Position numbers and translations under genes: made by a program. DNA of 64,000 nt, taken from NCBI GenBank assembly GCA_021815445.1, contig JAKAGM010000002.1, positions 307,720-371,719 on the forward strand. The letters run 5' to 3'. The notes below the pieces were generated by a model. It was given only the letters and a program-made list of their open reading frames with translations. It was not told the origin of the DNA and did not search any database. The stretch is from a bacterium. Its GTDB lineage: Bacteria > Patescibacteriota > Patescibacteriia > UBA10025. Shown here one piece after another: positions 741 to 19,356 of this stretch (the first letter of the stretch is position 1; each line of letters begins with the position of its first letter).

Positions 741-3464
741 ATGAATGGGAACGCCGAATTTCCAGGGGTAACTCTGGACGATATCAGGCGCGTCCCCAAT
801 CCGACTCCTGCGTTTTGGAGTTGGATGTGGGATGCGTTCGCTAACGGCCGGCTTGATATTGCCGTGCAAGCGGCACTCAGCGCCGGACAGGCAACGGGTG
901 TCGAAAGCGCCCTATCGTTTTTGCAGGAATTGGGGAGCCGCTGTCAGGGCGAACCTTCAGCCGTGCACGTCGCGGACATTCAAAGGAAGCGACATTCCTC
1001 TCGGCATACCAGTACGCTACAGAAGATGTTAGGGGCGCCTACCTGGGCGAAGGATCCGCAGCTTATCTTAGGAGCACGCGGTCACGCCGTAGCCTCAGCA
1101 CTTTTGCGAGGAGCATACGATTCACATCGTAGTTCTTCCAAACATTACAAAGGTCCAGCCGGACAGCTTTCGTTATTTCCTCCCTTTGTTGATGTACCAC
1201 CCGGCGGGCAAACCAGACTTTTTTCTGGACCAGCCAGTTATAGTGAGCCACGGAATCCTCAAGGCGTCCGTCGGGCATCGTACCCAGTATTGATTCACCG
1301 CATCGAAAAGCACTGGGACGTCATTCGTAGGCTTATCGAGAATGGTGATCTCAACGCTTGGCGGACACGCAAAGGTGTAGTCCACAGGCTTGAACAAGCA
1401 ATCGAACAGATTGTCGGTGATCCGATCAACAAGCTCTGGCGAGAAGGGTGGGATCCCAGCGGCAACCTCGTTGTCCTCACCATCTTAAGCTGGGCGGCGA
1501 TGATTATCTCCCGCGGTCTGCAACGAATTCCCCACGCACTTTTTACTGAGATTGGAGTTCTCGGACAGCAGCATGGTTTGGGCGGCGGACGGATTGACGC
1601 AATTGAAGTGACTAGTATCAACGGTAAAAATCCGACTCCGTACCAGCAGAGGCTGCTTGGGATTCTCAGCAAAGGGCATTATCGATCCACAGGCCATTTG
1701 ATGAGAGTGCTCCTGGGGAATTTCCGCAACCCGGAGATCGTCGTTATCGACTGGAAATTTTTAGTCGGTGACATGATGAGTCGCGGATCCCAGCCTGATT
1801 TGCGCGCTCTTTGCGCCTCGCCCTTGTCTCACCACGAGGACCAGATGAGACGGTATTTAACGCTTATCCAGCTTGACTACCATCTCACTATTCGTCACCC
1901 CGAGCTCTGGCAGACAAATGAATTCTCGTTGCACGGGGAGCTTCATTACATCTTTCCGCACTGCAAACCTGTCGTTCACAACGTATCCATGACGCCCCAG
2001 GAGCTCGAGCAGTGGTTTGCGAATTCTGTGGCGCTTCGATGGTCGGCTGTCCAACGCCGAGCAATAGTACGCGTGGTAGACAACTTCATTATGGGAACGC
2101 TCGTCGGATTGCTCAACGGCCGTCCGCGGAAAAGAAACGGTACCCTGCACAACGGTGAAGCCGGTGAGCAGATTGAGCTCATACCAGCAGAGCCGCGAGT
2201 AACAGCTGCAACCATCGTTGAGCGAACTCAGGATTCCCACAGGAGGTTTGTTGATGAACATCAGATCATAGAGATTGTCGAGGAAAGACCATCGGGACAG
2301 GTCATCGAAATGCGACTGGATCGTCTTATGGAATGCGTCAGCCAGGGGTCTGTCTCAACGTTCGGGTTCTCCGCAGCACGTGGCGGAAAAATCCAATGTC
2401 TCATGCCTGGTCATCGGGACTCCACTTTCTCCCTGCAGGTGTATCTCGCTGATTTCCGTCCGCATTTTCACTGTTTCGGATGCGGGGCACACGGAAAAAT
2501 TGCGAGTGAATCAATTTCTCGCGAGTTTGCCCTTGCGTTCATTGCGAATCACCAAACTGACGCGCGTACAATTCAGCCGGTGACCAGCTCCCGACTGCCG
2601 GTCATTCCTGAAGAGCACCACCGTATCATGTCGTGCGCGCAAAAACTGCTTTCAGGAAATTTCTGGAACAGTGAGGGAGAGAGATACCTTGTGCAGACCC
2701 GCAAACTTGATGTTCAGCTCGCGTTTGAAAAGGGCGCGGGCTACGCCGATAGTCGGTTCATTTGCGCTCTCCTGGAGGAAGGGCTGACAGTTGATGAGCT
2801 GATCGTCTACGGATTCGTCGGTATTTCGCGCTCGGTATCCAGCCGACACGGACTAGCGCCGCTTCTGTTTGATCGCGGTTTCAAGCTTAACGAGATCAAG
2901 CGCCCGCTCCCCGGTTCAACTTCTGGGAAACCTATCTGGGGGATGCCGTATTCAACCCTTAACAACCGCGTCACCTTTCCGTTGACGCTTGAGGGGAGGG
3001 TTACCAATATCTATGGCCGGGCGGCGTACCGATGCGATAGAAGATTCTCGCATAGGAAGCTCTCGACCGAAAAGACAAAAGTTCCCCAAGGCGGATTCCA
3101 CATGGAAGCGCTCGAGGGAGAGGAAGGCGAGGTCGTAATCTCCGAAGGTGCGATTGATGCACTATCGCTCATCGAGCTCGGATGGCCCCGATCGCTGGCG
3201 ATGATAGGCGTCAGTAATACTGCCATCATCCGCGTCATGGCGCGGTCGCAGCGGAATTTCGCTATAGCGTTAGATAACGACGATACGGGAAGGAGGGAGA
3301 CAGCGAAGCTTGTAGAGCGACTCCGGGGCTTCGGATGGAAAGGCCAATCGCGCGACTTCACGGGCGAGTTTGTCCGACAACATCATGATCGCCAGTTCAA
3401 GGATTACAATGATTGGCTTATTGCTACCCGACTGCCGGCACCCGACGATGATCCGCCCTTTTAA
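741..3464 (+). CDS. DnaG-type primase (CHC2 zinc finger + TOPRIM) with a ~500-aa N-terminal extension of unknown function
   Basis: Primase zinc-binding motif CLMPGHRDSTFSLQV...HFHCFGCGAHGKI. A TOPRIM follows: VVISEGAIDALSL...FAIALDNDDTGRRE. The N-terminal half has no motif I recognise, apart from a possible PD-(D/E)xK-like pair (GRIDAIEV ... VVIDWKF). Confidence 0.6.
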   Translation: MNGNAEFPGVTLDDIRRVPNPTPAFWSWMWDAFANGRLDIAVQAALSAGQATGVESALSFLQELGSRCQGEPSAVHVADIQRKRHSSRHTSTLQKMLGAPTWAKDPQLILGARGHAVASALLRGAYDSHRSSSKHYKGPAGQLSLFPPFVDVPPGGQTRLFSGPASYSEPRNPQGVRRASYPVLIHRIEKHWDVIRRLIENGDLNAWRTRKGVVHRLEQAIEQIVGDPINKLWREGWDPSGNLVVLTILSWAAMIISRGLQRIPHALFTEIGVLGQQHGLGGGRIDAIEVTSINGKNPTPYQQRLLGILSKGHYRSTGHLMRVLLGNFRNPEIVVIDWKFLVGDMMSRGSQPDLRALCASPLSHHEDQMRRYLTLIQLDYHLTIRHPELWQTNEFSLHGELHYIFPHCKPVVHNVSMTPQELEQWFANSVALRWSAVQRRAIVRVVDNFIMGTLVGLLNGRPRKRNGTLHNGEAGEQIELIPAEPRVTAATIVERTQDSHRRFVDEHQIIEIVEERPSGQVIEMRLDRLMECVSQGSVSTFGFSAARGGKIQCLMPGHRDSTFSLQVYLADFRPHFHCFGCGAHGKIASESISREFALAFIANHQTDARTIQPVTSSRLPVIPEEHHRIMSCAQKLLSGNFWNSEGERYLVQTRKLDVQLAFEKGAGYADSRFICALLEEGLTVDELIVYGFVGISRSVSSRHGLAPLLFDRGFKLNEIKRPLPGSTSGKPIWGMPYSTLNNRVTFPLTLEGRVTNIYGRAAYRCDRRFSHRKLSTEKTKVPQGGFHMEALEGEEGEVVISEGAIDALSLIELGWPRSLAMIGVSNTAIIRVMARSQRNFAIALDNDDTGRRETAKLVERLRGFGWKGQSRDFTGEFVRQHHDRQFKDYNDWLIATRLPAPDDDPPF

Positions 3465-3581
3465 GTCTCTGTATGCAGGACACCTACATTTTGGTGACCT
3501 GCTTTTTTATTCCTATCTGATTTATTCGTTTCAAAAATATTTTTTCTTACGTCACTCCCCCCGATTTATCCACCTCATAAT

Positions 3582-3620
3582 TTGACGTTTATTCTTTTGT
3601 GTACTACCCTGTGTAGTAGG
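3582..3620 (+). promoter_or_regulatory. Promoter with BlaI/CopY-type operator dyad (copy 1 of 3)
   Basis: TTGACG, a 17-nt spacer, then TACCCT. The -10 region is overlapped by the inverted repeat TACTAC-cctgt-GTAGTA. A 23-nt core, TGTACTACCCTGTGTAGTAGGCA, is identical to the site at 7783. Confidence 0.65.
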
Positions 3621-3651
3621 CAGGCGTTTCTTGCTTAATAACTGCTAAGAT

Positions 3652-4038
3652 ATGGGCAAAAAGTCGTTATCCACAACCGTAATTGTCGCATTTGTTCTTG
3701 CGTCTCTTTTGAGCCCTATTTTTCTCGCCTCATGCTCACTGGGCGCGGGGCACGATATAGTCATGAGGACTATCGGAATGAGTTGTTCGACAGAACTGCT
3801 CCGTCACCTCACTAAATTACAGGGGATATTTCTTGCATTTGCCATAAGCTTGGTACTGGCTATTCTCGCACCATATTTCGTACGTTCCGTAGATGATGAG
3901 AGTGAACTGACGCGTACACGACAAATATTTTTTTCTTTTCGGGCTTTTTCACACAACATGAAATTTTTTGACGCTCTTCGCCTAGCTTTTGCAGAGGGGG
4001 TCATCGGCGCAAAACGCTTCGACACACTGGCGGTCTAG
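3652..4038 (+). CDS. Hypothetical small membrane protein, first gene after operator 1
   Basis: ORF with two predicted hydrophobic helices. No recognisable motif. Confidence 0.4.
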   Translation: MGKKSLSTTVIVAFVLASLLSPIFLASCSLGAGHDIVMRTIGMSCSTELLRHLTKLQGIFLAFAISLVLAILAPYFVRSVDDESELTRTRQIFFSFRAFSHNMKFFDALRLAFAEGVIGAKRFDTLAV

Positions 4039-4169
4039 AACGGGTCCAAACAACCTCAACGGAGTATCGTCGAGTCAGGATCCGTTTTTTGGCATTCGAA
4101 GCGCTTTTAATGTATTTAAAAACTATGTCCAGACATTCACGTCAAAACAACTCATCTCATGTCATCGTA

Positions 4170-4772
4170 ATGAAAAAGAAACACTTCTATCTTTCGCTTG
4201 TTATGGTTATCGTCGCTGTCGGGATTTTAACCGCTGTCATTTCTTCGGGCAAAGGAAAGATAGGAAGCGTGGAGAGCTCCTCAGAAGTGTCGGGCAATAT
4301 ACAGTTTGAGAATGCAATCGGTAAGCGGGCGCCGGATTTTGAGCTTGAAAATACCAACGGCGCCAAGGTCAGTCTCAAACAGCTTCGGGGAAAGGCCATC
4401 GTCCTCTTCTTTAACGAAGGAAGCATGTGCTATCCGGCGTGTTGGAATCAGGTTAAAGAGCTCGCCGCCGACCAACGACTGAACAATGATCAGATTCAGG
4501 CTTACTCCATTGTCGACGAGTCAAAAGGCGCGTGGCAAAGCATCATGAAGAAGCAGCCGGAATATTCGACTGATAAAATGTTGTTTGATACCTCGCGGAA
4601 AGTATCTCTGGCGTATGATGTTCTTTCGCTTCCTTCCTCGATGCATAAAGGAGCATTTCCGGGACACACCTACATTGTGATAGATAAAGAGGGGATAATC
4701 CGCTACGTGCTTGACGATCCGAGCATGGCAATCCGCAACGACCAGATTCTGGCCGAGGCACAAAAGATCTAA
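4170..4772 (+). CDS. Membrane-anchored thioredoxin-like thiol:disulfide oxidoreductase (TlpA/ResA/redoxin family)
   Basis: Start MKKKHFYL, then an N-terminal TM. The motif FELENTNGAKVSLKQLRGKAIVLFFNEGSMCYPAC carries a CxxC-type redox pair in a thioredoxin fold. Confidence 0.75.
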   Translation: MKKKHFYLSLVMVIVAVGILTAVISSGKGKIGSVESSSEVSGNIQFENAIGKRAPDFELENTNGAKVSLKQLRGKAIVLFFNEGSMCYPACWNQVKELAADQRLNNDQIQAYSIVDESKGAWQSIMKKQPEYSTDKMLFDTSRKVSLAYDVLSLPSSMHKGAFPGHTYIVIDKEGIIRYVLDDPSMAIRNDQILAEAQKI

Positions 4773-4786
4773 CCCGTACTTCCCCT

Positions 4787-5683
4787 ATGGATCTTCTTAT
4801 CTCATCATCACTGATTACCGCATTTCTTGCCGGTGTTGCCGCGCTCTTCGCCCCCTGTTGCATTACCGTGCTCTTGCCCGCGTACCTCGCCTCGATATTC
4901 AAAGAAAAGCGCACGGTCTTTCTGATGACGTTTGTGTTTTTTCTCGGGCTGTTGACCATCTTCTTGCCGCTCGGGCTCGGATTCGCGGGTCTCGGGAAAT
5001 TTCTGACGCGAAACCATACGTGGGTCTTTATCGGGGGAAGCATTATTATGTTCGCGCTCGGAACCATGATATTGCTGGGCAAGCATATTTCCCTTCCTGT
5101 CCACCTGCCATCGACGAAGATTACCAATACCGGATCGGTGTATCTGCTCGGTATCTTTTCTGGAATAGCCACAGTATGTTGCGCGCCGGTGCTGGCAGGA
5201 ACACTTACCTTGTCTGTCCTGCCCGGGTCGGTGCTATGGGGAGGCGTATATGCGGTCGTGTATGTACTGGGCATGGTGATCCCGCTCTTCGTCATCGCCT
5301 TCTTCCTTGATGAAACACATGCAATAAAGAAATTGAAGATTTTCCGGGCTACGATGTCGTATTCCATCGGTGCGCGACAGGTGCATTTACGCATCGCCGA
5401 TCTTATTTCAGGTTTTACCTTCCTTCTTATGGGTGTCGTCACGGTGATTGTCGCGATAAAGAATCCTTCCGGCGGAATGGTCTTTTCGGGATCTGCTCTG
5501 CAGACAGCAGTCAATATCACAGCCTCGCAGATTACCGACGCGCTTTCACGCACCTCAGGCTCGGTTCCCGCATTCGCCTGGCTGATCGCCGTAGGCCTCA
5601 TTATTCTCGGTATTGTCGTCTATGCATGGAAAAGGTCGCATGATCCGTTAGCTGACAGCACGAAAGGAGGTGAAGAATTATGA
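4787..5683 (+). CDS. DsbD/CcdA-superfamily polytopic membrane protein with vicinal Cys-Cys motifs; a possible metal or thiol transporter
   Basis: FAPCCITVLLPAYL and TVCCAPVLAG occupy the two positions where CcdA has single Cys residues. Multi-TM protein. The stop overlaps the next start. Confidence 0.6.
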   Translation: MDLLISSSLITAFLAGVAALFAPCCITVLLPAYLASIFKEKRTVFLMTFVFFLGLLTIFLPLGLGFAGLGKFLTRNHTWVFIGGSIIMFALGTMILLGKHISLPVHLPSTKITNTGSVYLLGIFSGIATVCCAPVLAGTLTLSVLPGSVLWGGVYAVVYVLGMVIPLFVIAFFLDETHAIKKLKIFRATMSYSIGARQVHLRIADLISGFTFLLMGVVTVIVAIKNPSGGMVFSGSALQTAVNITASQITDALSRTSGSVPAFAWLIAVGLIILGIVVYAWKRSHDPLADSTKGGEEL

Positions 5684-6300
5684 AAGTGAAATACATTTTG
5701 AATGGAATTATATTCATCTATGCGTTCTTTTTTGTCGTCTTGAACGGGTTTCTGCTTGCCAGCACAGCCGTCATGGCGACCACCGCGATGGTGTCGCCAT
5801 CCCCAACAACTACGCAAACACAGCAGTCGCAAGGTCCCACGAATGCGCAGGTAGCTTCTGTCGTTGCCCAAGTTATCCCTGCGGGCATCCCGCCGGTGTA
5901 CGGATCGGAGCTCAATGTGAATTTCTCGAATCCTGTTGCGAGTCTGACTATCCTTGACGGCTATGACCGAGGCGCAAATAAAATTGATCTTCAGGGCGAT
6001 GCGCTCGCGCGATACATCAAGATAGCAATGAAAACGGCCTGTGAATTCTGTTGCGGAGCAAAAACGCTCGTGTTCAAAGATGGCAGTCCGGCATGCGGAT
6101 GCGCCCATTCAGCGGCAATGCGCGGCGTTGCCAAGTACTTGATCCAAAAACACGGCACTGAATTCACCGATGAGCAAATTCTGACTGAAGTGAATAAGTG
6201 GAAAGCGATATCGTTCCCCAAGCAGACGGTGGAGCGGGCGCTCGCGAGTGCCGGAGGGAGCAGCTCCGTAAATCTTCCCTCGCAAGTGGGCGGATGTTAA
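5680..6300 (+). CDS. Secreted Cys-rich protein ending in LPSQVGGC
   Basis: Signal peptide, a Thr/Gln-rich linker, then the cysteine cluster CEFCCGA...SPACGCAHS. The C-terminus is NLPSQVGGC. Confidence 0.5.
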   Translation: MKVKYILNGIIFIYAFFFVVLNGFLLASTAVMATTAMVSPSPTTTQTQQSQGPTNAQVASVVAQVIPAGIPPVYGSELNVNFSNPVASLTILDGYDRGANKIDLQGDALARYIKIAMKTACEFCCGAKTLVFKDGSPACGCAHSAAMRGVAKYLIQKHGTEFTDEQILTEVNKWKAISFPKQTVERALASAGGSSSVNLPSQVGGC

Positions 6301-6341
6301 CCGCCTCCAATATTCTAATATCCATAATCAATGAATAGCAT

Positions 6342-6641
6342 ATGAGCCAGATTTCCTCCCCGCACGGAGACGTGCTTCACAGACATGAGGATGCCCCGAA
6401 GGACAAGGTTGTTCAAATCCGCCTGAACCGGAGCACATTCATGAGCGGCATTTTACTTCTCTTTGCCATCGTGGTGACGGTGCAGTTCTTCCAGATCAAG
6501 GGCCTCAGGGCTCAGGTGACTAATTCCGGATCCGCACAGCAGCCGTCGGTGTCCGCCCCCGCCTCACAACAACCGGCTGCGCAACCGGCGCAGTCCTCGG
6601 GAGCGTTGCAAAACCTGCCAAGCCAGGTTGGAGGCTGTTAG
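6342..6641 (+). CDS. Small membrane-anchored Gln/Pro/Ala-rich protein ending in LPSQVGGC (alternative start 6441)
   Basis: The C-terminus QNLPSQVGGC is identical to the preceding protein's, with different codons. One TM helix (ILLLFAIVVTVQFF). Confidence 0.45.
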   Translation: MSQISSPHGDVLHRHEDAPKDKVVQIRLNRSTFMSGILLLFAIVVTVQFFQIKGLRAQVTNSGSAQQPSVSAPASQQPAAQPAQSSGALQNLPSQVGGC

Positions 6642-6645
6642 CCAT

Positions 6646-6885
6646 ATGAAGAGAGCCGAGCTAATCTTTTTTTCGCTCGTCGGACTCGTACTCCTAGTAG
6701 TGCTTGCCGCATCATTTGCCCCGCAGGCGCAGAAGTCGTTCCGCAATACCCCGGAAAACTATGCTCGCGCAAAGGCAGCGGAGGTCGCCGGCAACCCTTG
6801 TGCAACCCCGCCGGGGTACACTGATGCCCAATGGCGCCAGCATATGAGCCACCATCCGGATCAATATCCCGGCTGTCTGAAATAA
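6646..6885 (+). CDS. Small membrane-anchored His/Cys-containing protein
   Basis: TM anchor, then NPCATPPGYTDAQWRQHMSHHPDQYPGC. The two Cys and the His cluster suggest metal binding; that reading is inference. Confidence 0.4.
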   Translation: MKRAELIFFSLVGLVLLVVLAASFAPQAQKSFRNTPENYARAKAAEVAGNPCATPPGYTDAQWRQHMSHHPDQYPGCLK

Positions 6886-6889
6886 AGGT

Positions 6890-7630
6890 ATGAATCTCGT
6901 AGCCTTCCCATTTCTCTTCGGCATCCTCGCGTTCTTGTCACCCTGCATTATGCCCATGCTGCAGGTATATTTGTCCTTAGTTACCGGAACAACGATTTCC
7001 GAGCTAACGACAAAAGATCCGGATGCAGAGGTCCGCCGTAGAGTTTTGGGAAGGACTGCGTGCTTCATCCTGGGATTCAGTGTTGTATTCGTACTGGCCG
7101 GTATGTTTGCTGGTTCAGTAGGATCGTTCCTGAAGGAGAGATCGGTCGTGCTCAATTATATCGGGGGGTTGATCATCGTTCTGCTGGGCCTCAAGATGCT
7201 CGGAGTGTTCCAGATGAAATTTCTCAGCAATCTGCATCTAGAGCCGGAGCGATTTCCCTTGCTCAAGAAGGATACCATGGCTGGAGCATTCTTGGTCGGC
7301 CTCTTTTTCGCGGTAGCCTGTTCGCACTGTTTCGGACCGCTGTTGTACTCCACGCTTATCGTTGCTGCCAATACCCAGTCCGCAACCAGCGGACTCGTAG
7401 TGCTCTTGAGCTTCTCTGCAGGCTTGGCTGTTCCGTATTTTATCACTGCCGCAGCGCTGCCGAGCGTTCTCGGGATGCTTCGACGGTTCAGCGCTGCAAT
7501 TACCGTGATCATAAAGGCGAGCGGGGCGTTCCTGGTCATTTTCGGCGTATTGGTGTTCTTCAACCAGTTTCAAATTCTCGCAACGCTTCTGGGCAAGATT
7601 GTTCCATGGGGAAATATCCTTTCCCTATAA
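6890..7630 (+). CDS. ccdA: Cytochrome c-type biogenesis / thiol-disulfide electron transporter CcdA
   Basis: LSPCIMPMLQVY in TM1, then a second conserved Cys motif, CSHCFGPLL. Roughly six TM helices. Confidence 0.8.
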   Translation: MNLVAFPFLFGILAFLSPCIMPMLQVYLSLVTGTTISELTTKDPDAEVRRRVLGRTACFILGFSVVFVLAGMFAGSVGSFLKERSVVLNYIGGLIIVLLGLKMLGVFQMKFLSNLHLEPERFPLLKKDTMAGAFLVGLFFAVACSHCFGPLLYSTLIVAANTQSATSGLVVLLSFSAGLAVPYFITAAALPSVLGMLRRFSAAITVIIKASGAFLVIFGVLVFFNQFQILATLLGKIVPWGNILSL

Positions 7631-7762
7631 AGGTCGGTATGTCGCTACATATTAATCATTTACAATGACACCTATGAAAAAAATACCAGGCGGCGGAGGA
7701 TGCTGTTAGTTCTATTTGCAAAATAAATTCACAAGAGTAACTCTTAAAAAGCCAAGCATTAT

Positions 7763-7800
7763 TTGACGGCCGTTTTATTTTGTACTACCCTGTGTAGTAG
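7763..7800 (+). promoter_or_regulatory. Promoter with BlaI/CopY-type operator dyad (copy 2 of 3); autoregulatory site of the repressor operon
   Basis: TTGACG, a 17-nt spacer, TACCCT, and the dyad TACTAC-cctgt-GTAGTA. The 23-nt core TGTACTACCCTGTGTAGTAGGCA is identical to site 1. Confidence 0.7.
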
Positions 7801-7825
7801 GCACTTATCCACACACCAAAATCAT

Positions 7826-8209
7826 ATGGCCAAACCTTCATTTCACCTCCTTGGAGACCTTGAGAAGCAGATCATGGAAATTGTTTGGAAACAGGAGCAG
7901 GTTACCGTCAGAGGCGTTGTAGAAATACTCCATAAAAAGCGTGAGATTGCTTATACGACAGTCATGACAGTTATGAACCGGCTTTCCGAGAAAAAGCTGC
8001 TCACCCGAAAGGAAGACGGCGGCGCTTTTGCATATGTAGCCACCCAGAAACGGGAATTATTCATGAGTAGGGCATCCGAAAATGTTATTCGTGGGCTGTT
8101 ATCCGAGTGCGGAGAGGTGGCCATAGCCCAATTTGTTGAAGCACTCGAGGATGTTGATCCGGCGAAGTTAGCACTGCTTGAAAAAAAGATTAGGGAAAAA
8201 CGGTCATGA
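7826..8209 (+). CDS. BlaI/MecI/CopY-family winged-helix transcriptional repressor (no C-terminal Cys-rich metal-binding tail)
   Basis: N-terminal penicillinase-repressor fold (IMEIVWKQEQVTVRGVVEILHKKREIAYTTVMTVMNRLSEKKLLTRK). No CxCx4CxC tail. Confidence 0.8.
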   Translation: MAKPSFHLLGDLEKQIMEIVWKQEQVTVRGVVEILHKKREIAYTTVMTVMNRLSEKKLLTRKEDGGAFAYVATQKRELFMSRASENVIRGLLSECGEVAIAQFVEALEDVDPAKLALLEKKIREKRS

Positions 8210-9258
8210 ATAAGCGAGACAGATCTACATTTTGGTCGTTTGTCCTCTACAGCGCGAGCGGAATATTCGGTATTAGTGCCGCCGCGGTGCTTGGCGGTGC
8301 GCTCCTGCCTCATATATCTTCCTCAGTGGGAATTCTCCTCGCACGCGTGGTGCATACGTGCAGCCAATTACTTTCGACTGTTGCAGGGCGGGATATTTTC
8401 CTCAGCTCATTGAACGCGCTTATTCTGCTTTTCGTGGGAGCCTTTTTCCTGACAGGTGCTGGTCTTTTTTTCCATGCCTCGTGGAAGACTGGACGGTACG
8501 TCTCATCTTTGCGAAAAAAAATTTTTCACCTTTCGGATTCTCGAAAAAAGATGTTCAATACAATGTTTCCGTCACTTACCCTCGTCGGAGTGGATGATCA
8601 GCATCCCTTCGTAGTGAGCGCCGGTTTGTTCAAACCGAAAATATACGTCAGCGCCGGTTTGTTGACTCTCTTATCGGACGATGAGCTTGTAAGCGTTTTT
8701 AAACACGAGGAATACCATTGCAGAAATCGGGACACCGCACGTTTGTTTATCGTGCATTTTTTCAGAAAACTGTTTTGGTTCGTTCCCGGCATTTCAAAGT
8801 TTGCCGCACAGGTCCAGACACTTTTTGAAATATCAGCTGATGAGCACGCTATCCACGCACTTGGTGATGATACGGCACTCGGGAGTGCACTTGTAAAAGT
8901 ACTTCGCCACCCGTCTCATTCGGCGATACCGGAACTCATTCCGGCTTTTTCTTCGGTGAATGATCGCATTGGGCGGCTTCTAGACGCGTCCTACAAACCT
9001 TCGACACGTGCAGCCGTGGCGGTGCCGATTTTTGGGATACTATTCCTGCTTCTTTCGGTGTTCTTTGCCCGAGGCAGTTTCGCCGCACCCAATGTTGCTT
9101 TTGACGGTTTCGAATTGCATAAGATGTCCCAGTCAAGAATATGTCCACAAATTGTTCCCGAACTGCTCATGAGCGTTCCTCAGAACCGTGTCTGCGTCCA
9201 CCCGCAAAATAGTACGCAGGCGCCGTCATGCGGCGAAACACACCCTACAACTAACTAG
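8206..9258 (+). CDS. BlaR1/MecR1-like M56 integral-membrane metalloprotease (anti-repressor), lacking a penicillin-binding sensor domain
   Basis: Four TM helices. The motif HEEYH (HExxH) sits in FKHEEYHCRNRD. At 350 aa there is no room for the C-terminal BlaR sensor domain. Start overlaps the repressor gene stop. Confidence 0.75.
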   Translation: MNKRDRSTFWSFVLYSASGIFGISAAAVLGGALLPHISSSVGILLARVVHTCSQLLSTVAGRDIFLSSLNALILLFVGAFFLTGAGLFFHASWKTGRYVSSLRKKIFHLSDSRKKMFNTMFPSLTLVGVDDQHPFVVSAGLFKPKIYVSAGLLTLLSDDELVSVFKHEEYHCRNRDTARLFIVHFFRKLFWFVPGISKFAAQVQTLFEISADEHAIHALGDDTALGSALVKVLRHPSHSAIPELIPAFSSVNDRIGRLLDASYKPSTRAAVAVPIFGILFLLLSVFFARGSFAAPNVAFDGFELHKMSQSRICPQIVPELLMSVPQNRVCVHPQNSTQAPSCGETHPTTN

Positions 9259-9276
9259 AGAACATGCACTCATTAT

Positions 9277-10230
9277 ATGTCTGATACCATCACAAAAGAT
9301 ATTTGGATCCAGGGTATGCACTGTGACGCATGCGAAAAAACTATCCGCAAATCATTGGAACGCATAGGGGTAGGTGTTGAAGATATTCGTTATACTAATA
9401 ATCGTGTTGAATTACTCTATGATCCGCTGAGAGTGCCTTTCTCCCAAATTGAAGGTGCCGTCGCTGACGTCGGGTACCGCGTGCGAGAAACTCCTCCCGA
9501 GGAATCAGGTCCGCGGGAAACTTCAATTGAGCGCGCCAAAAGGGTTTTTCATTCTTTTCGAAATGACCCTGAAGCGTATCAACTGGAAAAACAAGTCATC
9601 AAAAGCACGCTCGGTACGTTGTTTATTGCGGCGGCATTAGAGTATCTCATCTATTTTATTTTCTTTTGGAACATTCAAGGATTTCTCCATACCTACGGCC
9701 AATATCTTGGGTACTTGATTGTCGGTGTCGTCGCAACAGGAGGAGCGGTAAGGCACTTACGGGCGTATCAGGGGGCCGTTTCATGCATGACAGGAATGAT
9801 GATTGGAATGACCATCGGGATGATTTCCGGCCTGCTTCTGGGGGCAGTTGTTGGCGCAACCAACGGCATGTTCGTTGGCTCTGTTTTCGGGATGGCTGTC
9901 GGTATGGCCGTCGGCGGCTGGGTAGGGGTGTGTTGTGGGATCATGGGACTCATGGAAGGCATGATGGCGGGGCTTATGGGCGGCACTATGGGCGCGATGA
10001 TCGGGGTGATGATGATTCCCGACAGACTCACGCTCTTTTTGCCGATATTCTTTGTCGCATGTCTTGCAATACTCGCAGGTCTTAGCTATATGGTGTACAA
10101 GGAGCACAAAGGCGCGCGAGACGAGGTAAAGTTGTATGGATTCTGGCCGTATACTTTTATCAATTTTGCATTCGTTCTTGCGGGAACCATCATCATCGTG
10201 TGGGGACCCAAGGCGGCATTTTTACGTTAA
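9277..10230 (+). CDS. HMA (CopZ-like) domain fused to a Met/Gly-rich polytopic membrane domain
   Basis: N-terminal GMHCDAC heavy-metal-associated motif. The membrane part is glycine-zipper/Met-rich (GMMIGMTIGMISG...GMAVGMAVGGWVGVCCGIMGLMEGMMAGLMGG) and includes a vicinal CC. Confidence 0.65.
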   Translation: MSDTITKDIWIQGMHCDACEKTIRKSLERIGVGVEDIRYTNNRVELLYDPLRVPFSQIEGAVADVGYRVRETPPEESGPRETSIERAKRVFHSFRNDPEAYQLEKQVIKSTLGTLFIAAALEYLIYFIFFWNIQGFLHTYGQYLGYLIVGVVATGGAVRHLRAYQGAVSCMTGMMIGMTIGMISGLLLGAVVGATNGMFVGSVFGMAVGMAVGGWVGVCCGIMGLMEGMMAGLMGGTMGAMIGVMMIPDRLTLFLPIFFVACLAILAGLSYMVYKEHKGARDEVKLYGFWPYTFINFAFVLAGTIIIVWGPKAAFLR

Positions 10231-10236
10231 CGAAAA

Positions 10237-10461
10237 ATGGATACTCTTACGCTTTCAATTTCGGGCATGCATTGCGCATCCTGCAGTAAACTGATCACTA
10301 TGGACCTGGAAGACATCGGCGTGACAGCCAGTATTGATCGCGACACCGGAAAGGGCAAAGTTACATTTGATCCTCAAAAAGTTTCGCAGGACCAAATACT
10401 CGATCAAATCAAAAAAAGCGGTTATCAGGCGTCAGTTATCACGGGTGGGACAGCACAATGA
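10237..10461 (+). CDS. copZ: Copper chaperone CopZ (single HMA domain)
   Basis: 74 aa with GMHCASC. Confidence 0.85.
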   Translation: MDTLTLSISGMHCASCSKLITMDLEDIGVTASIDRDTGKGKVTFDPQKVSQDQILDQIKKSGYQASVITGGTAQ

Positions 10462-11216
10462 ACGTCACTCAATTACCGCTTGCACTTTCTTTTGTCTTCG
10501 GTGTTCTTTCCATCATATCCCCCTGCGTGATAGTTTTGCTGCCCGCGTACTTGGCCACCATCACGGGGTTCAGCATCGAAGAGCTCACTTCAGCAGAACA
10601 CGAGAGCATTGTCCTTCGAAGGATACTTGGAAATGCGCTCGGGTTTATTCTCGGCTTCTTCCTGGTTTTTATCCCTCTAGGTGCGCTGATCGGTGTGGCG
10701 GCAACTGCGATAGGAAGCGCACGATCGGTTTTCGCGGTCGTCGCGGGCGTCATCGTCGTGCTCCTCGGGATGAATTTCCTGTATCCGCTCCCTTTTCTCA
10801 GGTGGATCAACACCGATGTCCGGATTCGCTGGAAACCTCGCGGCTATTCGTTCATCAGTAATATTTTCTTCGGCGCCGTATTCGCTTTTGTATGGACTCC
10901 CTGCGTTGGACCGTATCTCGTGGCTGTCACAGCTCTGGTCGGGTCGACGGGAGACATCGGCAAAGGCGTAGCGTACTTTTCTCTCTACGCACTCGGTCTG
11001 GCGATAAGCATGCTCGTATTTACTGTCTTTTACACCAAAGTGGCATTCGTGACGAATTTTCTCAAACAACACTCGCGGTCTATCCAAGTAATCAGCGGAA
11101 TTCTCCTTATCACCATCGGCATTCTCATGATATCCGACAAACTCTATCTTACCAACATTGCTATCAATAAATTCTTCGGCGGTTTCCAACCCGAATCGTG
11201 GTTTATTAATTCATAA
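10458..11216 (+). CDS. ccdA: CcdA-family thiol-disulfide transporter (second copy)
   Basis: ISPCVIVLLPAYL in TM1, with a second Cys motif TPCVGPYL. Confidence 0.8.
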   Translation: MNVTQLPLALSFVFGVLSIISPCVIVLLPAYLATITGFSIEELTSAEHESIVLRRILGNALGFILGFFLVFIPLGALIGVAATAIGSARSVFAVVAGVIVVLLGMNFLYPLPFLRWINTDVRIRWKPRGYSFISNIFFGAVFAFVWTPCVGPYLVAVTALVGSTGDIGKGVAYFSLYALGLAISMLVFTVFYTKVAFVTNFLKQHSRSIQVISGILLITIGILMISDKLYLTNIAINKFFGGFQPESWFINS

Positions 11217-11227
11217 TATACAGCACT

Positions 11228-11659
11228 ATGGCCTCACAAAAATCAGACAGTTCGCATTTTATCAGAAATATGATGATCGTCATGGGCATTGTCACTGCTC
11301 TCAGCGGTGCAGCTGCCTGGCGTCTCGGTTCACGGGCGACAATTACGCCGAGAACAAGTGACACCACGGTTGCCGACGATTTGTCCGGAAGCGCGCAAGA
11401 CGCTGTTTCTATCACCGTAGCGTCCTCAGGATATACTCCGGGGGAAATCACGGTACCTCAGGGCAAGAAAGTTCGCCTCAACCTTGTCACCAACGGCACG
11501 TACGGATGCATCCGCTCTTTTGTCATCCCGAAACTTGGGATTTCAAAAACTCTCCCGACAAGCGGCACGACAACCGTCGAGTTTACTCCGACGGAAAAGG
11601 GGACACTCGCGTTCCAGTGTTCCATGGGGATGTTCAGGGGAAATATTAAAGTCATATAA
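11228..11659 (+). CDS. Cupredoxin-like (Cupredoxin_1/EfeO-N-type) protein with N-terminal TM anchor
   Basis: C-terminal YGC...FQCSMGMFRGNIKV copper-site-like motif. Paralogous to the next gene. Confidence 0.6.
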   Translation: MASQKSDSSHFIRNMMIVMGIVTALSGAAAWRLGSRATITPRTSDTTVADDLSGSAQDAVSITVASSGYTPGEITVPQGKKVRLNLVTNGTYGCIRSFVIPKLGISKTLPTSGTTTVEFTPTEKGTLAFQCSMGMFRGNIKVI

Positions 11660-11665
11660 ATTTTC

Positions 11666-12037
11666 ATGGACCCGCGCCAACTGATTGGCATTGTTCTGAT
11701 CGCACTAGTCGTAGGGCTTTTTTTTCTGTGGCTGAGGTTCCAGCGGCGCCAAGAGCGCGCCTCAGAGAGCGGTGGTATCCAAGAGGTTACCATTCTCGTC
11801 AAGGGAGCGTACGATCCGAACGTGATTACCGCAAAGGCCGGCATACCCCTTCGTATCCATTTTAACCGGCAGGAAGATACTGACTGCTCCCGGTTTGTTA
11901 CCTTCGATACGCTCCATCTAAGAAAGAATTTAAAATCCTTTTCGACAACCGAAATCGAATTTACCCCAGAAAAAGCGGGCGAGTATCCTTTCGCATGCGA
12001 TATGGGCATGTATCAGGGAAAGTTGATCGTAAAATAG
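11666..12037 (+). CDS. Cupredoxin-like protein (tandem paralog)
   Basis: FACDMGMYQGKLIVK C-terminus with the same architecture. Single TM anchor. Confidence 0.6.
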   Translation: MDPRQLIGIVLIALVVGLFFLWLRFQRRQERASESGGIQEVTILVKGAYDPNVITAKAGIPLRIHFNRQEDTDCSRFVTFDTLHLRKNLKSFSTTEIEFTPEKAGEYPFACDMGMYQGKLIVK

Positions 12038-12046
12038 TAGAGACAT

Positions 12047-14341
12047 ATGGGACAGCAGACGACGACATTATCACTTCGGGGAATGCATTGCGCGAGTTGC
12101 GCGCAGTTGATTGAGCGCGGGCTCAAAAAGGTTCCGGGGGTGCAGCAAGCCAACGTAAATTACGGCACCGAACGAGCCCATGTAGTGTTCGACTCGGTGA
12201 CTGCCTCGGTTGATTCCTTGATTCGGGGCGTGGAGAATGTCGGGTATCATGCCAAGGAACTAAAAGAAGACCGTCAGTCGCGCCAGTCAGAAGACGACGA
12301 ACGTCGCCGGGAGATACAGAAAATCAAGACAAAATTTTTTATCAGTCTCGTCCTATCCCTCCCCGTGCTCGTGCTCAGTATGGGCATGAAGATTGTTCCC
12401 GCGATCGAAAATATACCGAATCGCGAATGGATCCAGTTTCTCTTTGCGACGCCCATTCAGTTTTGGGCCGGGTGGCAGTTCTATCGTGGATTCTGGGGGG
12501 CGCTGAAGGCCCGTACGGCGAATATGGACAGTCTCATCGCCCTCGGCACCTCCGCGGCGTATTTTTACTCCTTAGTCGTTATCCTCAAGCTTGTTGAGGG
12601 GGAAGTATACTTTGAAATAGGGAGCATTCTGATTGCATTCGTTCTCCTGGGCAAATGGCTCGAGGCGCGAGCCAAAGGCAAGACAGGAGAAGCCATCAAA
12701 AAGCTCATGGGCCTGGCGCCCACTACTGCGTTTGTTATTCGCGGCGAGAGGGAGCTGGAGATCCCGCTCGAACAGGTGGTCGTCGGGGATCATATCCGGG
12801 TGAAACCGGGGTCGAAGATTCCTGTTGACGGCATGGTTGAAGATGGCGTTTCGTCGGTTGATGAGTCAATGATAACCGGCGAAAGCATTCCAGTAGAAAA
12901 AAGCGCCGGAACGGCGGTGATCGGCGGAACTATCAATATCCACGGCTCATTCGTCTTCCAGGCGAAAAAGATTGGGAAAGAAACGTTACTTGCCGGAATT
13001 ATTAAGCTCGTTGAGGATGCTCAGGCGTCCAAGGCGCCCATTCAGCGTTTTGCCGACCGGGTATCGGCGTATTTTGTCCCTATAGTCATCGCGCTCGCGC
13101 TCATTACCTTTCTGTCATGGTATTTTATCGCGGCCCAGCCGTTTGTTTCCAGTTTACTCGCGTTTGTCGCCGTGCTAGTCATCGCCTGCCCCTGCGCGCT
13201 CGGTCTCGCCACTCCTACGGCAATTATTACTGGCACGGGACTGGGCGCGTCGCGGGGCATTCTCATCAAAGGCGGTGAAGCGCTTGAAGCAGCCAGAAAA
13301 ATCGACACGGTGGTTTTTGACAAGACGGGGACCCTGACGATAGGCAAGCCGCTGGTCACGGATATTGTCCAGCTTGAAGAAGGCCAGAAAGCGCTCACCT
13401 TTTTTATTCATCAGATGGCCGGCACGCATATTGAAGATATCCTGCTCCAGGTCGCCGCATCACTCGAGGCGCAATCGGAGCACTCGTTGGCTGAGGCCAT
13501 TGTCAAAGAGGCAAAAGTTCGAAAATTGCCGTTATTTGCCATACGGAATTTTTCCGCGCAGCCGGGCAGAGGAGTGTATGCTGAAATTGTTCCCGCAGAC
13601 GGCGTTACATCAACAGTCAATGTACTTCTAGGTAATAGGAAGATGATGGTCGAAGCGGGGATACCTCTAGGTTCCGCCGAATCCTTTATGCATGCACTTG
13701 AGGAACAGGGCAAGACAGTGATGGCGGTCGGCATACTCGGCCAGCAGGGATCTACGCATGTTGTTGCGGGGCTTATCGCCGTCTCTGATGTTCCAAAGCA
13801 GGATGCCAGAGAAGCGGTTCGCGCGCTCACAGAACGTGGAATTTCTGTCGCGATGATTACCGGCGACAACAGGAGGACCGGAGAGGCTATCGCGCGGCAG
13901 CTGGGCATCACCCGAGTTCTGGCCGAAGTATTGCCCCAGGACAAAGCCGACGAAGTAAAGAAACTTCAGGCAGAAGGGAAGAAAGTGGCTTTTGTCGGGG
14001 ATGGAGTCAATGATGCTCCGGCGCTTGCCTCGGCAGATCTCGGCATTGCCATCGGCTCGGGGACTGACGTTGCGCTCGAGGCCGGGCAGATTGTGCTGGT
14101 AAAAAACAATTTACTCGATGTCGTCAGAGCTATCCGACTTTCTCAGGCGACGTTTCGTAAAATTGTCCAAAATCTTTTTTGGGCCCTTATCTACAATGTC
14201 GCCGGCATACCCATCGCGGCAGGGGCATTGTACGGGGTGCTCGGATGGCAACTGAGACCCGAAATTGCCGGAGCGGCTATGGCTCTGTCCAGTGTCTCTG
14301 TTGTGACAAATTCTCTTCTTTTAAAGCGATTTCGAGCATAA
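12047..14341 (+). CDS. copA: Copper-translocating P1B-type ATPase CopA
   Basis: N-terminal HMA (GMHCASC), CPC motif ([11 protein letters not shown]), DKTGTLT phosphorylation site and the GDGVNDAP hinge. Confidence 0.95.
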
Positions 14342-14375
14342 ACTGTTCTTGAGAAAGCTTGTGTATAACTAATAC

Positions 14376-14412
14376 TTGACCTGCGTGAATATTCTACTAC
14401 AATAAGTAGTAG
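14376..14412 (+). promoter_or_regulatory. Promoter with BlaI/CopY-type operator dyad (copy 3 of 3), upstream of the DsbA-like genes
   Basis: TTGACC, a 16-nt spacer, then TACAAT. It is overlapped by CTACTAC-aataa-GTAGTAG, which has the same half-sites and 5-bp spacing as sites 1 and 2 but a different spacer sequence. Confidence 0.6.
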
Positions 14413-14426
14413 CTCTTTGAAAGATA

Positions 14427-15209
14427 TTGCGTCTAAAGGGCAAGTTACCTTCCTTATGGTATACTGGAATCATTATGGCTGGTATCCCACCACTAGAACC
14501 CGTAAAAAAGCCGTTGGTACTCCGATGGTGGTTTTTGATGACAGTTTTTTTGGCCGTAATAATAGCCGGTTCGTTTGGGATGTTAGTGTATGAAAATTAC
14601 CGCGCCCTCCAGAAAGGTGAGATAAGCATTGCAGGAGGTATCACGCGGGATCCGAACGCTACGGCGACAAATGTAGCGATTGCCAATGTGGTCACTGATG
14701 ACGACCCTTCTCTTGGTCCTAAAGATGCCAAGGTGGTCGTAGTCGAGTTTGCCGATTTTCAATGTCCGTATTGTCAGGAGGCATTTCCCATTATCAGGGA
14801 GCTTACGGTGAAGTACGCAGACAAGGTCCGGTTTATTTATCGTGATTTTCCCGTGGGCAGTGTGCACCCGGACGCCCAAAACGCGGCAATAGCAGCGTCG
14901 TGCGTAGCCAAGCAGGATCAGGTGAAGTTTTGGCTCTATCATGACAAACTTTACCTGAACCAGGAAGATTTAGGCCAGGACGCACTCTTAAGATACGCCC
15001 TGCAGGTAGGCGCAGACGAACAGAAGTTTCTCGCATGCATCAATGATTCGAGCGTTGCCCAGGAGGTTCAAAATGATTATCAGGACGGCATTATCGCCGG
15101 CGTGACGGGGACTCCGACATTCTTTATAGACGGCAGGCGGGTACCGGGGGTGATCCCTCTCGATATCTTCACAAAGGCGCTTGATTCCGAACTTTCCAAA
15201 CAACAATAA
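14427..15209 (+). CDS. Membrane-anchored DsbA-like thiol:disulfide oxidoreductase
   Basis: FADFQCPYCQEAFP CxxC motif in a DsbA fold. N-terminal TM. Alternative start at 14475. Confidence 0.75.
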   Translation: MRLKGKLPSLWYTGIIMAGIPPLEPVKKPLVLRWWFLMTVFLAVIIAGSFGMLVYENYRALQKGEISIAGGITRDPNATATNVAIANVVTDDDPSLGPKDAKVVVVEFADFQCPYCQEAFPIIRELTVKYADKVRFIYRDFPVGSVHPDAQNAAIAASCVAKQDQVKFWLYHDKLYLNQEDLGQDALLRYALQVGADEQKFLACINDSSVAQEVQNDYQDGIIAGVTGTPTFFIDGRRVPGVIPLDIFTKALDSELSKQQ

Positions 15210-15356
15210 ACCACAGACGTAAACAGTCGGTCACCCTACGCCAGTCCAATTCTTTCTTTGGTCGCTGACATGAGAAAGTGAAGCGGGTTGACTACTTTAC
15301 GCCTGCTGGTATACTAGGACGACTACCTCTAATTATTTTTTAAAAGTTTCGTTACT

Positions 15357-16136
15357 ATGGAGAAAGAACAAAAGATAACTCACCAATCAGAGGACGGTAT
15401 TTTCCAGGCGTCGCCAAAAGTGACGTTTTACTTGGGATTGCTGTCGGGTATCACGCTTGTCAGCGTCATCGGTTTCTTTTTAACCTTTTCGATGCTACGA
15501 AGCGGATCTGTCGTGACAAAGAACACAAACTCAGGAACCAATGGGACGGTCGCCGGTGCAGATACAAACACGAATACTGCTGCTGCTCCTGCAGCTGCCC
15601 CGACAGCACCCGTTGATATCAAACTCACCGCTGATGACCACGTGAAGGGTAATGCAAATGCCAAGGTAACTCTGGTAGAATATTCTGACTTCCAGTGCCC
15701 GTTTTGCGCTACAGTCAGACCAACATTGGATCAAGTTATGAAGGACTATGGGGATAAAGTAAAACTTGTGTATCGCAATTATCCTCTGACTTCACTGCAT
15801 CCGATGGCCCAAAAGGCGGCAGAAGCATCAGAGTGCGCATCTGAGCAAGGGAAATTCTGGGAGATGCACGATAAACTCTTCGACCAGAATACTGCGGGCA
15901 CGATGAGCGTGGATAACTTCAAGAAAGCTGCCGGAGAGTTAAAACTCAACCAGAGCCAGTTTGATACCTGTCTCGACACAGGAAAGTATGCGAGCAAGGT
16001 TACAGCCTCCGAGACCGAGGGGACTTCATTCGGCGTGCAAGGCACCCCGGCGACTTTCGTCAACGGCGTGCTTATTTCCGGTGCGGTGCCATATGCGCAG
16101 TTTAAGACTGCGATAGACAACGCATTGAGCTCCTGA
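15357..16136 (+). CDS. Membrane-anchored DsbA-like thiol:disulfide oxidoreductase (paralog)
   Basis: YSDFQCPFCATVRP. An Ala/Thr-rich linker follows the TM anchor. Confidence 0.75.
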   Translation: MEKEQKITHQSEDGIFQASPKVTFYLGLLSGITLVSVIGFFLTFSMLRSGSVVTKNTNSGTNGTVAGADTNTNTAAAPAAAPTAPVDIKLTADDHVKGNANAKVTLVEYSDFQCPFCATVRPTLDQVMKDYGDKVKLVYRNYPLTSLHPMAQKAAEASECASEQGKFWEMHDKLFDQNTAGTMSVDNFKKAAGELKLNQSQFDTCLDTGKYASKVTASETEGTSFGVQGTPATFVNGVLISGAVPYAQFKTAIDNALSS

Positions 16137-16148
16137 GACCACTTTAAG

Positions 16149-16979
16149 ATGATTTTTGGAAGCGCCCTACCGAATCCGATCGCGTTGTCGGTGGGCGCTT
16201 TTGGTATTCGGTGGTACGCGCTTATCATTGTAAGCGCTATAGTAGCCGGGTTTAGCATCACGCGAAGGATGGCGCGCCAACAAGGAATCCAGGATGAAAC
16301 TGTGTGGGATATTCTGCTCTTCACGATTCCCGCGGCAATTATTTTCGGCAGATTGGCTTTTGTGCTAAGTCACCTTCCTCTCTACTATACGTTTAAAGAT
16401 ACCCTAAAAATTTGGGAAGGCGGCATTTCGAGCCACGGAACTATATTGGGAGGTTTGCTGGTCATTGTACTCATCGCATGGAAGCGACGAATTTCGTTTT
16501 GGATGCTTATGGACATCATTGTTCCCGGCGCCGTGCTCGCACAAGCGATAGGGAGGTGGGGCAACTACATGAATCAAGAGGCATTCGGCCCGCCGACAAA
16601 CCTGCCGTGGGCTGTCCCTATCCAGCCCTCTCTGCGGCCGGATAGATACGCTAACTTCGATTACTTCCATCCCACCTGGCTCTATGAGTCGATCTGGAAT
16701 CTCGTCGTTTTTGTTGTCCTCCTGCTTTTGTTCAAAAGGGTTCGGCATAAACCCGGTGTCCTCGCGGCCATTTATTTCCTTTTGTATTATGCCGGGAGGT
16801 TCGTCCTAGAGTTTTTCCGACTTGATACCGTTTTTGTCGGTGCAGTACGGTTTACCACGTACCTCAGTATCGCTGTAATGATCGTCGCTGTAAGCGTATT
16901 GATTGCGCGTATGCGGAGAGCACCTCAAACATTTGAGGATATAGAGACTATTCAGACCAACAAGCAGGGCACCGCATAG
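16149..16979 (+). CDS. lgt: Prolipoprotein diacylglyceryl transferase Lgt
   Basis: Lgt signature GRWGNYMNQEAFGPPTNLPWAV in a polytopic membrane protein. Confidence 0.85.
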   Translation: MIFGSALPNPIALSVGAFGIRWYALIIVSAIVAGFSITRRMARQQGIQDETVWDILLFTIPAAIIFGRLAFVLSHLPLYYTFKDTLKIWEGGISSHGTILGGLLVIVLIAWKRRISFWMLMDIIVPGAVLAQAIGRWGNYMNQEAFGPPTNLPWAVPIQPSLRPDRYANFDYFHPTWLYESIWNLVVFVVLLLLFKRVRHKPGVLAAIYFLLYYAGRFVLEFFRLDTVFVGAVRFTTYLSIAVMIVAVSVLIARMRRAPQTFEDIETIQTNKQGTA

Positions 16980-17111
16980 GAGCTGTTGAAAAAATATTCC
17001 GCTGACGCTTGCAACTGGCCGGATCTGCACATCGGCACTTATTATTATCTCACCTAGCTCTGTGCGCCCTTGCCTTTTTCCTATGCATAGTGTATTCTCT
17101 GGCGGTACCGT

Positions 17112-17186: not shown

Positions 17187-17200
17187 ATTCGAAAAAATGC

Positions 17201-19350: not shown

Positions 19351-19356
19351 AGGTGT

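Follow-up and report, generated by a model that had tools for sequence, protein, structure and literature searches.

Described BlaI-family switches and the present locus

In Synechocystis sp. PCC 6803, the protease PetP degrades the BlaI-family repressor PetR in the presence of copper and not in its absence (Garcia-Canas et al., bioRxiv 10.1101/2020.07.31.226407; PNAS 2021). PetR does not bind copper via CopY-type sites, and the petRP mRNA is unchanged on copper addition (bioRxiv 10.1101/2020.07.31.226407). According to a 2023 review, PetRP gives no copper-homeostasis output; the same review left open the role of BlaR homologues and PetP-like proteins in heterotrophs. In a survey of 2026, about 6% of about 15,000 proteases annotated as 'BlaR' were able to bind beta-lactams, which leaves the others without a known signal. 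Here we analyse a 64-kb stretch (the window) of contig JAKAGM010000002.1 from an uncultured, groundwater-type bacterium of the Patescibacteria, in which three copies of one promoter/operator module, each overlapped by the inverted repeat TACTAC-N5-GTAGTA (the dyad), stand ahead of three units of copper and thiol-redox genes. The second copy precedes genes for a BlaI-family repressor (7826-8209) and an M56 membrane protease (8206-9258). By its family assignments, the system belongs to the BlaI/BlaR type of regulators and is neither a CopY nor a beta-lactam BlaR1 system, and the same operator recurs across many phyla.

By analogy, this system would work most like PetRP. Both have a BlaI-family repressor that lacks the CopY cysteines, both have a downstream gene for a sensor-less M48/M56 protease whose start overlaps the repressor stop, and both have a link to copper; their operators share the geometry of an inverted repeat spaced by 5 nt and differ in base (GAC-N5-GTC for PetR, a TAC-N5-GTA core here). 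However, the four genes under PetRP control serve to switch the photosynthetic electron carrier, whereas copper export and Dsb/Ccd genes lie behind the operators here, and PetR is also an activator. The proposed ligands of PetP are two Met in the loop between transmembrane helices 2 and 3 (TM2-TM3). The present protease lacks them, and its candidate sensor is a C-terminal tail rich in Cys. An operator in the pair's own promoter is clear here, in contrast to PetRP.

BlaI/BlaR1 and MecI/MecR1 of Staphylococcus and Bacillus share with this locus the repressor fold, binding of a dimer to an operator over the promoter, autoregulation and relief by an M56-type protease (the last three predicted here), but the locus has neither a transpeptidase sensor domain nor a beta-lactamase or PBP2a target, and its operator is TACTAC-N5-GTAGTA rather than TACA/TGTA. 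Proteases without a sensor domain also occur in BlaI/BlaR of Mycobacterium tuberculosis (Rv1846c/Rv1845c), CenIR of Clostridioides difficile and PvmSR of Pseudomonas aeruginosa. The M. tuberculosis regulon comprises blaC, ATP synthase and cytochrome bd, and that of C. difficile cell-envelope genes; none of these pairs has been described at the head of a copA/dsbA regulon. For BlaI of M. tuberculosis, the motif is said to be TAC[GT]AC-N5-GT[AC]GTA, in which case the operator itself would already be known in Actinobacteria. In Clostridium thermocellum, the BlaI_0696 operator GTCTAT-N5-ATAGAC was confirmed by DNA affinity purification sequencing and electrophoretic mobility shift assays.

CopY/CopR of Enterococcus, Lactococcus and Streptococcus belong to the same superfamily, repress copA/copZ and are autoregulated from an inverted repeat over the promoter. 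However, they sense Cu(I)/Zn(II) via a C-terminal CxCx4CxC motif, have no protease partner and bind a TACAnnTGTA cop box, and none of these three features is found here. The Scs and DsbC/DsbD systems of Proteobacteria likewise combine copper tolerance with thioredoxin-fold proteins and an envelope reductant supplier of the DsbD/CcdA type, but they have other regulators and no BlaI-type operator; the analogy is functional and applies to the cargo only. No description of a TACTAC-N5-GTAGTA copper/thiol regulon was found in the literature searched.

A promoter/operator module in three copies

The dyad sequence TACTACNNNNNGTAGTA has three exact matches in the window, the 64 kb of the genome that was searched, at 3602-3618, 7783-7799 and 14395-14411. 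For TACTAC-N5-GTAGTA, 0.01 copies are expected from dinucleotide-preserving shuffles (0/100 shuffles reach three), copies with one or two mismatches are absent from the window, and matches with three mismatches (18 vs 9.9 expected) are near background. An earlier note, made from the letters alone, had named a random dyad frequency as the outcome that would speak against a shared operator; the observation is instead confirmed to lie far beyond chance within the window.

All three modules lie on the plus strand and place a TTGAC(G/C) -35 box 13-14 nt ahead of the dyad. Module 1 (3582-3620) combines the -35 box TTGACG (3582-3587), a 17-nt spacer, the -10 hexamer TACCCT (3605-3610) and the dyad TACTAC-CCTGT-GTAGTA (3602-3618). 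Module 2 (7763-7801) has TTGACG (7763-7768), 17 nt and TACCCT (7786-7791), with the repressor start codon 26 nt downstream, and module 3 (14376-14412), 34 nt past the copA stop codon, has TTGACC (14376-14381), 16 nt and TACAAT (14398-14403). At each site the first base of the -10 hexamer is the fourth of the left half-site, 11 bp separate the centres of the two half-sites, and the dyad overlaps the -10 as well as the predicted transcription start. Position 6 of the -10 hexamer coincides with the third spacer base, which for this reason is always T. In the promoter scan, site 3 ties with one other sigma-70-like match for the best score within 3300-17300 (10/12). The 23-mer TGTACTACCCTGTGTAGTAGGCA is common to sites 1 and 2 (3600-3622 and 7781-7803), which are mismatched on either side of it. 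This architecture, its coordinates and the identical 23-mer had been pointed out before and were re-read as such, as was the placement of module 2 directly before the repressor gene, where it would be autoregulatory.

The module is also kept in three independent Patescibacteria loci (L001, L003 and L004) whose repressors are 65-69% identical to that of the window. They preserve the gene order repressor, M56 protease, HMA/Met-rich protein, CopZ, CcdA, two cupredoxins, CopA and DsbA, with a second DsbA and Lgt in two of the three, and all have the dyad before the repressor gene and before dsbA. L003 contains unit 1 as well, again with the dyad ahead of it (at 3508). In the alignments of orthologous intergenic regions, a comparison that the earlier note had proposed, the invariant columns gather in TTGAC and the dyad and the flanks have diverged, which bears out its reading of the sites as operators rather than repeat copies. 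The dsbA sites of these relatives always have TACAAT, and the autoregulatory sites have weaker hexamers.

Beyond the close relatives, a repressor-alignment scan of one genome per GTDB species, selecting for the recognition helix TVMTVMxRL, yielded 80 loci from Patescibacteria, KSB1, Chloroflexota, Actinomycetota, Armatimonadota, Acidobacteriota, Bacillota and others. In these loci TACNAC-N5-GTNGTA occurs exactly 60 times in 1.28 Mb (1.2 expected), and in 81 such loci TACTAC-N5-GTAGTA occurs 50 times after removal of duplicates (0.07 expected). With at most one mismatch, the dyad precedes the repressor gene at 41 of 78 loci and stands close behind the M56 gene at 26 of 58; an M56 gene follows the repressor gene in most of the 81 loci. 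The dyad has the appearance of the operator of a distinct BlaI-type subfamily. Autoregulatory operators are more often imperfect than cargo operators, with one mismatch in 24 of the 41 before the repressor gene, usually TGCTAC or TACTAT in the left half-site, and in 11 of the 26 past M56 (e.g. L012, L035, L043, L070, L082 and L084); this is consistent with self-repression that is looser than repression of the cargo.

A motif-first scan of metagenomes with the pattern TTGAC-N14-16-TACTAC-NNT-NN-GTAGTAG gave at least 120 modules/contigs. Among the matches listed, the first gene behind the module encodes DsbA in 45 of about 113, a homologue of the LPSQVGGC-tailed protein of unit 1 in 11 and a cupredoxin in 5, and DUF305 proteins, CsoR-like repressors, multi-thioredoxin proteins and a membrane protein with a GCASCG motif also occur in this position. 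Cargo outside the candidate phyla radiation (CPR) includes TlpA-like, CcdA and FtrD-like proteins, a PCYCGC protein, MerB and a divergently transcribed copA; in the non-CPR loci L050 and L064, copA is divergent beside the repressor-protease pair, with dyads in the common intergenic region. Judged by gene content, the common theme of the cargo is thiophilic metal and exported-thiol chemistry. In L010 (Magasanikbacteria, 6524-6796) and the metagenome loci L099 and L153, the first gene behind a cargo operator encodes a CsoR-like repressor (PF02583) and the next a large cupredoxin protein, followed by copA in L010 and L099, where the contig extends far enough; this would be a two-tier arrangement in which a BlaI-type switch controls a second copper sensor.

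A predicted repressor-protease switch and its alternatives

The 127-residue repressor matches PF03965 (Penicillinase_R) over residues 9-123 with 101.6 bits (cutoff 22.6), and its nearest solved relative is BlaI of M. tuberculosis (2G9W), with MecI and BlaI also among its relatives in the PDB. The recognition helices are near-identical (AYTTVMAVLQRL in M. tuberculosis BlaI, AYTTVMTVMNRL here). F103 corresponds in the alignment to the Phe of the NF pair in helix 5 of MecI, the BlaI/MecI cleavage site, and is invariant among 35 repressor homologues. The close homologues of the repressor all belong to Patescibacteria, with Candidatus Kerfeldbacteria the nearest. The NCBIfam models for BlaI and MecI score far under their cutoffs.

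The protease gene, which was missed when the repressor was first recognised, overlaps the repressor gene by ATGA (8206-8209), where the stop of one and the start of the other coincide. Its 350-residue product matches PF05569 (51.4 bits vs 31) and PF01435, and HEEYH at residues 167-171 lies between transmembrane helices. An AlphaFold2 model has a core with a predicted local distance difference test score (pLDDT) of about 90, and a Foldseek search of the PDB with this model returned cryo-electron microscopy structures of Staphylococcus aureus BlaR1 as its top six matches; a sequence search against the PDB gave no matches. No penicillin-binding domain (PF00905) was matched in the protease, only about 58 residues follow the last transmembrane helix, and NF000326 (blaR1_generic) scores 37.9 bits against a cutoff of 400. 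A direct protein search with the protease returned 8 homologues, and the family was reached via the repressor instead. Residues ~293-350 form a predicted extracytoplasmic tail, in which H305, C313, C330 and C342 are invariant in the window's clade (orthologue alignment A1). Cysteine makes up 5-6.4% of such tails (n=52) compared with 1.4% of the rest of the protease. Most CPR tails follow C-x9-13-C-x7-10-C-x10-13-C in an otherwise free sequence, and Thermoleophilia-type tails carry CxxCH.

From the architecture, its conservation and the family assignments, we infer that the three dyads are probably BlaI-family operators, that the M56 protease most likely relieves repression, and that its tail may sense copper(I) or thiol status. 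A dimeric repressor would bind all three dyads and block RNA polymerase at all three units, because the dyads overlap the -10 and the predicted transcription start, and module 2 would make the repressor-protease pair autoregulatory. The presence of the M56 gene points to a two-protein switch of the BlaI/BlaR type rather than a lone CopY-like metal sensor. The signal would be copper(I) and/or a disturbed thiol-disulfide status outside the membrane, and the tail cysteines would either coordinate Cu(I) or signal whether they are themselves oxidised. Thus activated, the co-translated protease would cleave the repressor, as in BlaI/BlaR1 and PetR/PetP. The output would comprise copper export and handling via CopA, CopZ, the HMA/Met-rich protein and the cupredoxins, together with an oxidising DsbA pathway and a reducing CcdA/TlpA-like pathway for exported cysteines. 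Since DsbA and CcdA are in the regulon, sensing via the tail cysteines would close a feedback loop.

Several observations weigh against this scheme. The -10 boxes of sites 1 and 2 are weak, retaining T1, A2 and T6 only, and fall under the threshold of the promoter scanner. The scan gave no convincing intrinsic terminators between the units and site 3 lies so close behind copA, so that read-through from unit 1 to 2 and from unit 2 to 3 is possible. In the repressor, Gln precedes the conserved Phe, where BlaI and MecI have Asn. The PetP-type Met pair is absent from the TM2-TM3 loop of the protease, which is only about 3 residues long (...VAGRD...). The tail is modelled at a pLDDT <50 and is poorly conserved apart from its cysteines, and for these reasons its role as the sensor is a guess. 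Finally, the MerB, FtrD-like and PCYCGC cargo in other phyla suggests that the system may respond to thiophilic metals or thiol stress in general rather than to copper specifically.

The identity of the repressor bears on the first alternative, in which it would bind Cu(I) and leave the DNA as CopY does, with the M56 protein irrelevant to induction. The locus had initially been ascribed to a BlaI/CopY-family repressor acting on operators like TACA/TGTA; the BlaI half of this assignment holds, but the CopY half was rejected. CopY_TcrY (TIGR02698) is indeed the best NCBIfam match and the protein belongs to the BlaI/MecI/CopY superfamily, with copA and copZ in the regulon as in CopY regulons, but at 60 bits the match falls short of the cutoff of 121.95. 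The sole cysteine, C95, is not C-terminal and varies in the 35-sequence alignment, the C-terminus (...LLEKKIREKRS) contains neither CxCx4CxC nor CxC, and the cop box TACANNTGTA has no match anywhere in the window; the likeness between the dyad and TACA/TGTA operators is loose. With an M56 gene behind the repressor gene in most related loci besides, direct metal binding by the repressor is unlikely, and we give CopY-type induction as a whole little credence. A different transcription factor acting at the dyad, with the BlaI-type neighbour there by coincidence, is less probable still. A second motif near some modules, TGTGNATAA, does show that a further factor or promoter element is present at some promoters, but of 78 loci from many phyla that were chosen by the recognition helix alone, 41 have the dyad ahead of the repressor gene, its 11-bp half-site spacing fits a winged-helix dimer, and its hexamer-N5-hexamer layout recurs in other BlaI-family operators. 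Least probable of all is a repeat, a mobile-element remnant or an RNA hairpin devoid of operator function. The identical 23-mer and the weak folding of the inverted repeat (-5 to -10.6 kcal/mol) would suit such an origin, but the sites occupy orthologous intergenic positions where only half-sites and promoter boxes are invariant, the arms never vary and so offer no compensatory change, the left arm, which overlaps the -10, would be missing from a transcript of its own promoter, and the hairpin z-scores of sites 1 and 2 are unremarkable. An RNA element was also rejected as a candidate (in 1-20000, Rfam matched only tRNAs, which lie at 17.1-19.1 kb; the hairpins are weak and their arms invariant, not covarying), and a genomic island or mobile element found no support, with GC content flat at 0.48-0.54 over 1-30000.

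A more serious contender keeps the same switch and changes its signal: the tail would report extracytoplasmic oxidative folding via its own disulfides, set by DsbA and CcdA, in a homeostatic loop in which the copper genes are passengers. Among the metagenome matches listed, no other first gene comes close to dsbA in frequency, the cargo elsewhere is thiol-centred (TlpA-like, CcdA, multi-thioredoxin and CxxC membrane proteins), and three to four tail cysteines at fixed spacing in a free sequence are what would be expected of a disulfide-bonded substrate mimic. However, the pair directly heads a copA-copZ-cupredoxin operon here and in the closest relatives, copA lies divergently beside it in L050 and L064, and PetP is copper-dependent; copper and thiol stress are also linked, as in Scs, and the two readings may be inseparable. 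We regard a purely non-copper signal as possible but doubtful, and favour the switch that senses copper(I) or thiol status.

If that switch operates as proposed, PetRP-type proteolytic copper control would extend from a photosynthesis switch to copper resistance in many non-photosynthetic phyla, and the locus would provide one of the few reconstructable transcriptional regulons in Patescibacteria, where regulators are scarce. To our knowledge, no genetics exist for Patescibacteria. The locus makes the signal of non-antibiotic 'BlaR-like' sensors testable, with a defined, conserved operator, a telling regulon and a mutable Cys-rich tail of ~55 residues, and the regulon points to the physiology, namely copper export and disulfide-bond formation and reduction. 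In addition, the dyad can serve as an annotation marker in metagenomes, including for LPxxVGGC, CC-motif DsbD-like and GCASCG membrane proteins. A wider and more speculative proposal is that the one-operator pairs found across phyla mediate an extracytoplasmic response to thiols and thiophilic metals and form the main envelope stress circuit of small-genome CPR bacteria. The Cys tail might then be a DsbA/CcdA substrate or a Cu(I) ligand on which the regulon feeds back, and a DnaA-box-consensus 9-mer, present at a fixed position in many of the promoters, hints at a second input.

Genes of the three units and neighbouring features

The gene list of the earlier note is matched by Pfam and NCBIfam; its description of a 'complete' envelope copper/thiol programme is overstated, given a search that covered 64 kb of the genome. 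All genes below lie on the plus strand. Unit 1 (3652-7630) comprises seven genes, recognised as open reading frames (ORFs) and by Pfam, in the same order as in L003. They encode a 128-aa membrane protein (3652-4038), a TlpA-like thiol reductase of the AhpC/TSA type (4089-4772), a DsbD_TM-like protein with two CC motifs (4787-5683), a Cys-rich exported protein of 206 aa ending in LPSQVGGC (5680-6300), a small protein with the same end (6342-6641), an 85-aa ORF (6628-6885) and CcdA (6890-7630); public gene calls agree on the 99-aa and 85-aa ORFs. The window also has a match in the public assembly GCA_027341205.1. The DsbD_TM-like protein has APCC and VCCAP where CcdA has single cysteines, and it recurs beside LPxxVGGC genes in CPR loci (homologues in L083, L092, L151 and L185).

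The C-terminal motif (L/A)P(S/N/G)(Q/M)VGGC-COOH is kept across CPR lineages, in a Cys-rich protein of ~200-270 aa and a small partner of ~90-130 aa, with homologues in L003, L015, L021, L045, L047, L065, L092 and L096; these genes are often the first cargo behind the operator. The LPxxVGGC proteins match no Pfam or NCBIfam family. A relation of the 206-aa protein to PCYCGC (PF13798) was considered and found no support (BLASTP E = 0.24, over a transmembrane stretch only, and no Pfam match). Directly upstream of module 1 lies a gene for a primase-like protein of 907 aa (741-3464) that combines a CHC2 zinc finger with a Toprim domain at its C-terminus, and this gene adjoins that of a lipoprotein cupredoxin (142-516; lipobox LSGC).

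In unit 2 (7826-14341), the genes for the winged-helix repressor and the zinc metalloprotease are followed by those for a fusion of an HMA domain with a Met-rich membrane domain (9277-10230), CopZ (10237-10461), a second CcdA (10458-11216), two cupredoxins (11228-11659 and 11666-12037) and CopA (12047-14341), a Cu-type P1B ATPase that matches TIGR01511 (ATPase-IB1_Cu) with 601 bits against a cutoff of 397; the remaining assignments rest on Pfam. Unit 3 encodes, also according to Pfam, DsbA (14427-15209, with an alternative ATG start at 14475), a second DsbA (15357-16136) and Lgt (16149-16979). Ahead of the second dsbA and lgt, the promoter scan placed a strong, TG-extended sigma-70-like promoter without an operator (15288-15315, TTGACT-16-TATACT). 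This arrangement suggests constitutive expression of the second dsbA and lgt beside a regulated first dsbA. The whole unit had been assigned to the one repressor; the first dsbA does stand behind an operator, but control of the second dsbA and lgt is perhaps only partial because they have a strong promoter of their own.

The second motif near the modules is the DnaA-box consensus TTATNCACA (other strand, TGTGNATAA). At module 3 the consensus 9-mer occupies 14360-14368 on the minus strand (TTATACACA on minus, TGTGTATAA on plus), 7 nt upstream of the -35 box, and is invariant in the site-3 alignment of relatives; companion 9-mers lie at 3566-3574, 3667-3675 and 7805-7813. The window has only two exact copies of TTATCCACA, located 6 nt past operator 2 and 49 nt past operator 1. 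Across distinct modules, TGTGNATAA (mostly cTGTGGATAA) stands 7-8 nt before the -35 box in 20 of 135, with ~0.5 expected, and 25 of the 51 exact copies of TGTGGATAA in 1.97 Mb of loci lie at most 80 nt from an operator. The 9-mer occurs in the window and in L008-L010, L021, L043, L075 and L089-L197. Its binder could be DnaA as a transcription factor or another regulator, or the 9-mer could be a promoter element. A replication origin as the source of the 9-mers found no support: a cluster at 20.8-21.4 kb lies inside the ORFs 20330-21202 and 21208-23508, directly past a ParA-like ORF, and no intergenic origin was seen near it.

Finally, a membrane protein of ~170-190 aa with a GxGCASCG motif is commonly encoded after the operator-controlled dsbA in metagenome loci (second gene after dsbA in L110, L131, L126 and L091). 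It matches no Pfam family and could be the missing re-oxidant of DsbA, with a role like that of DsbB or VKOR.

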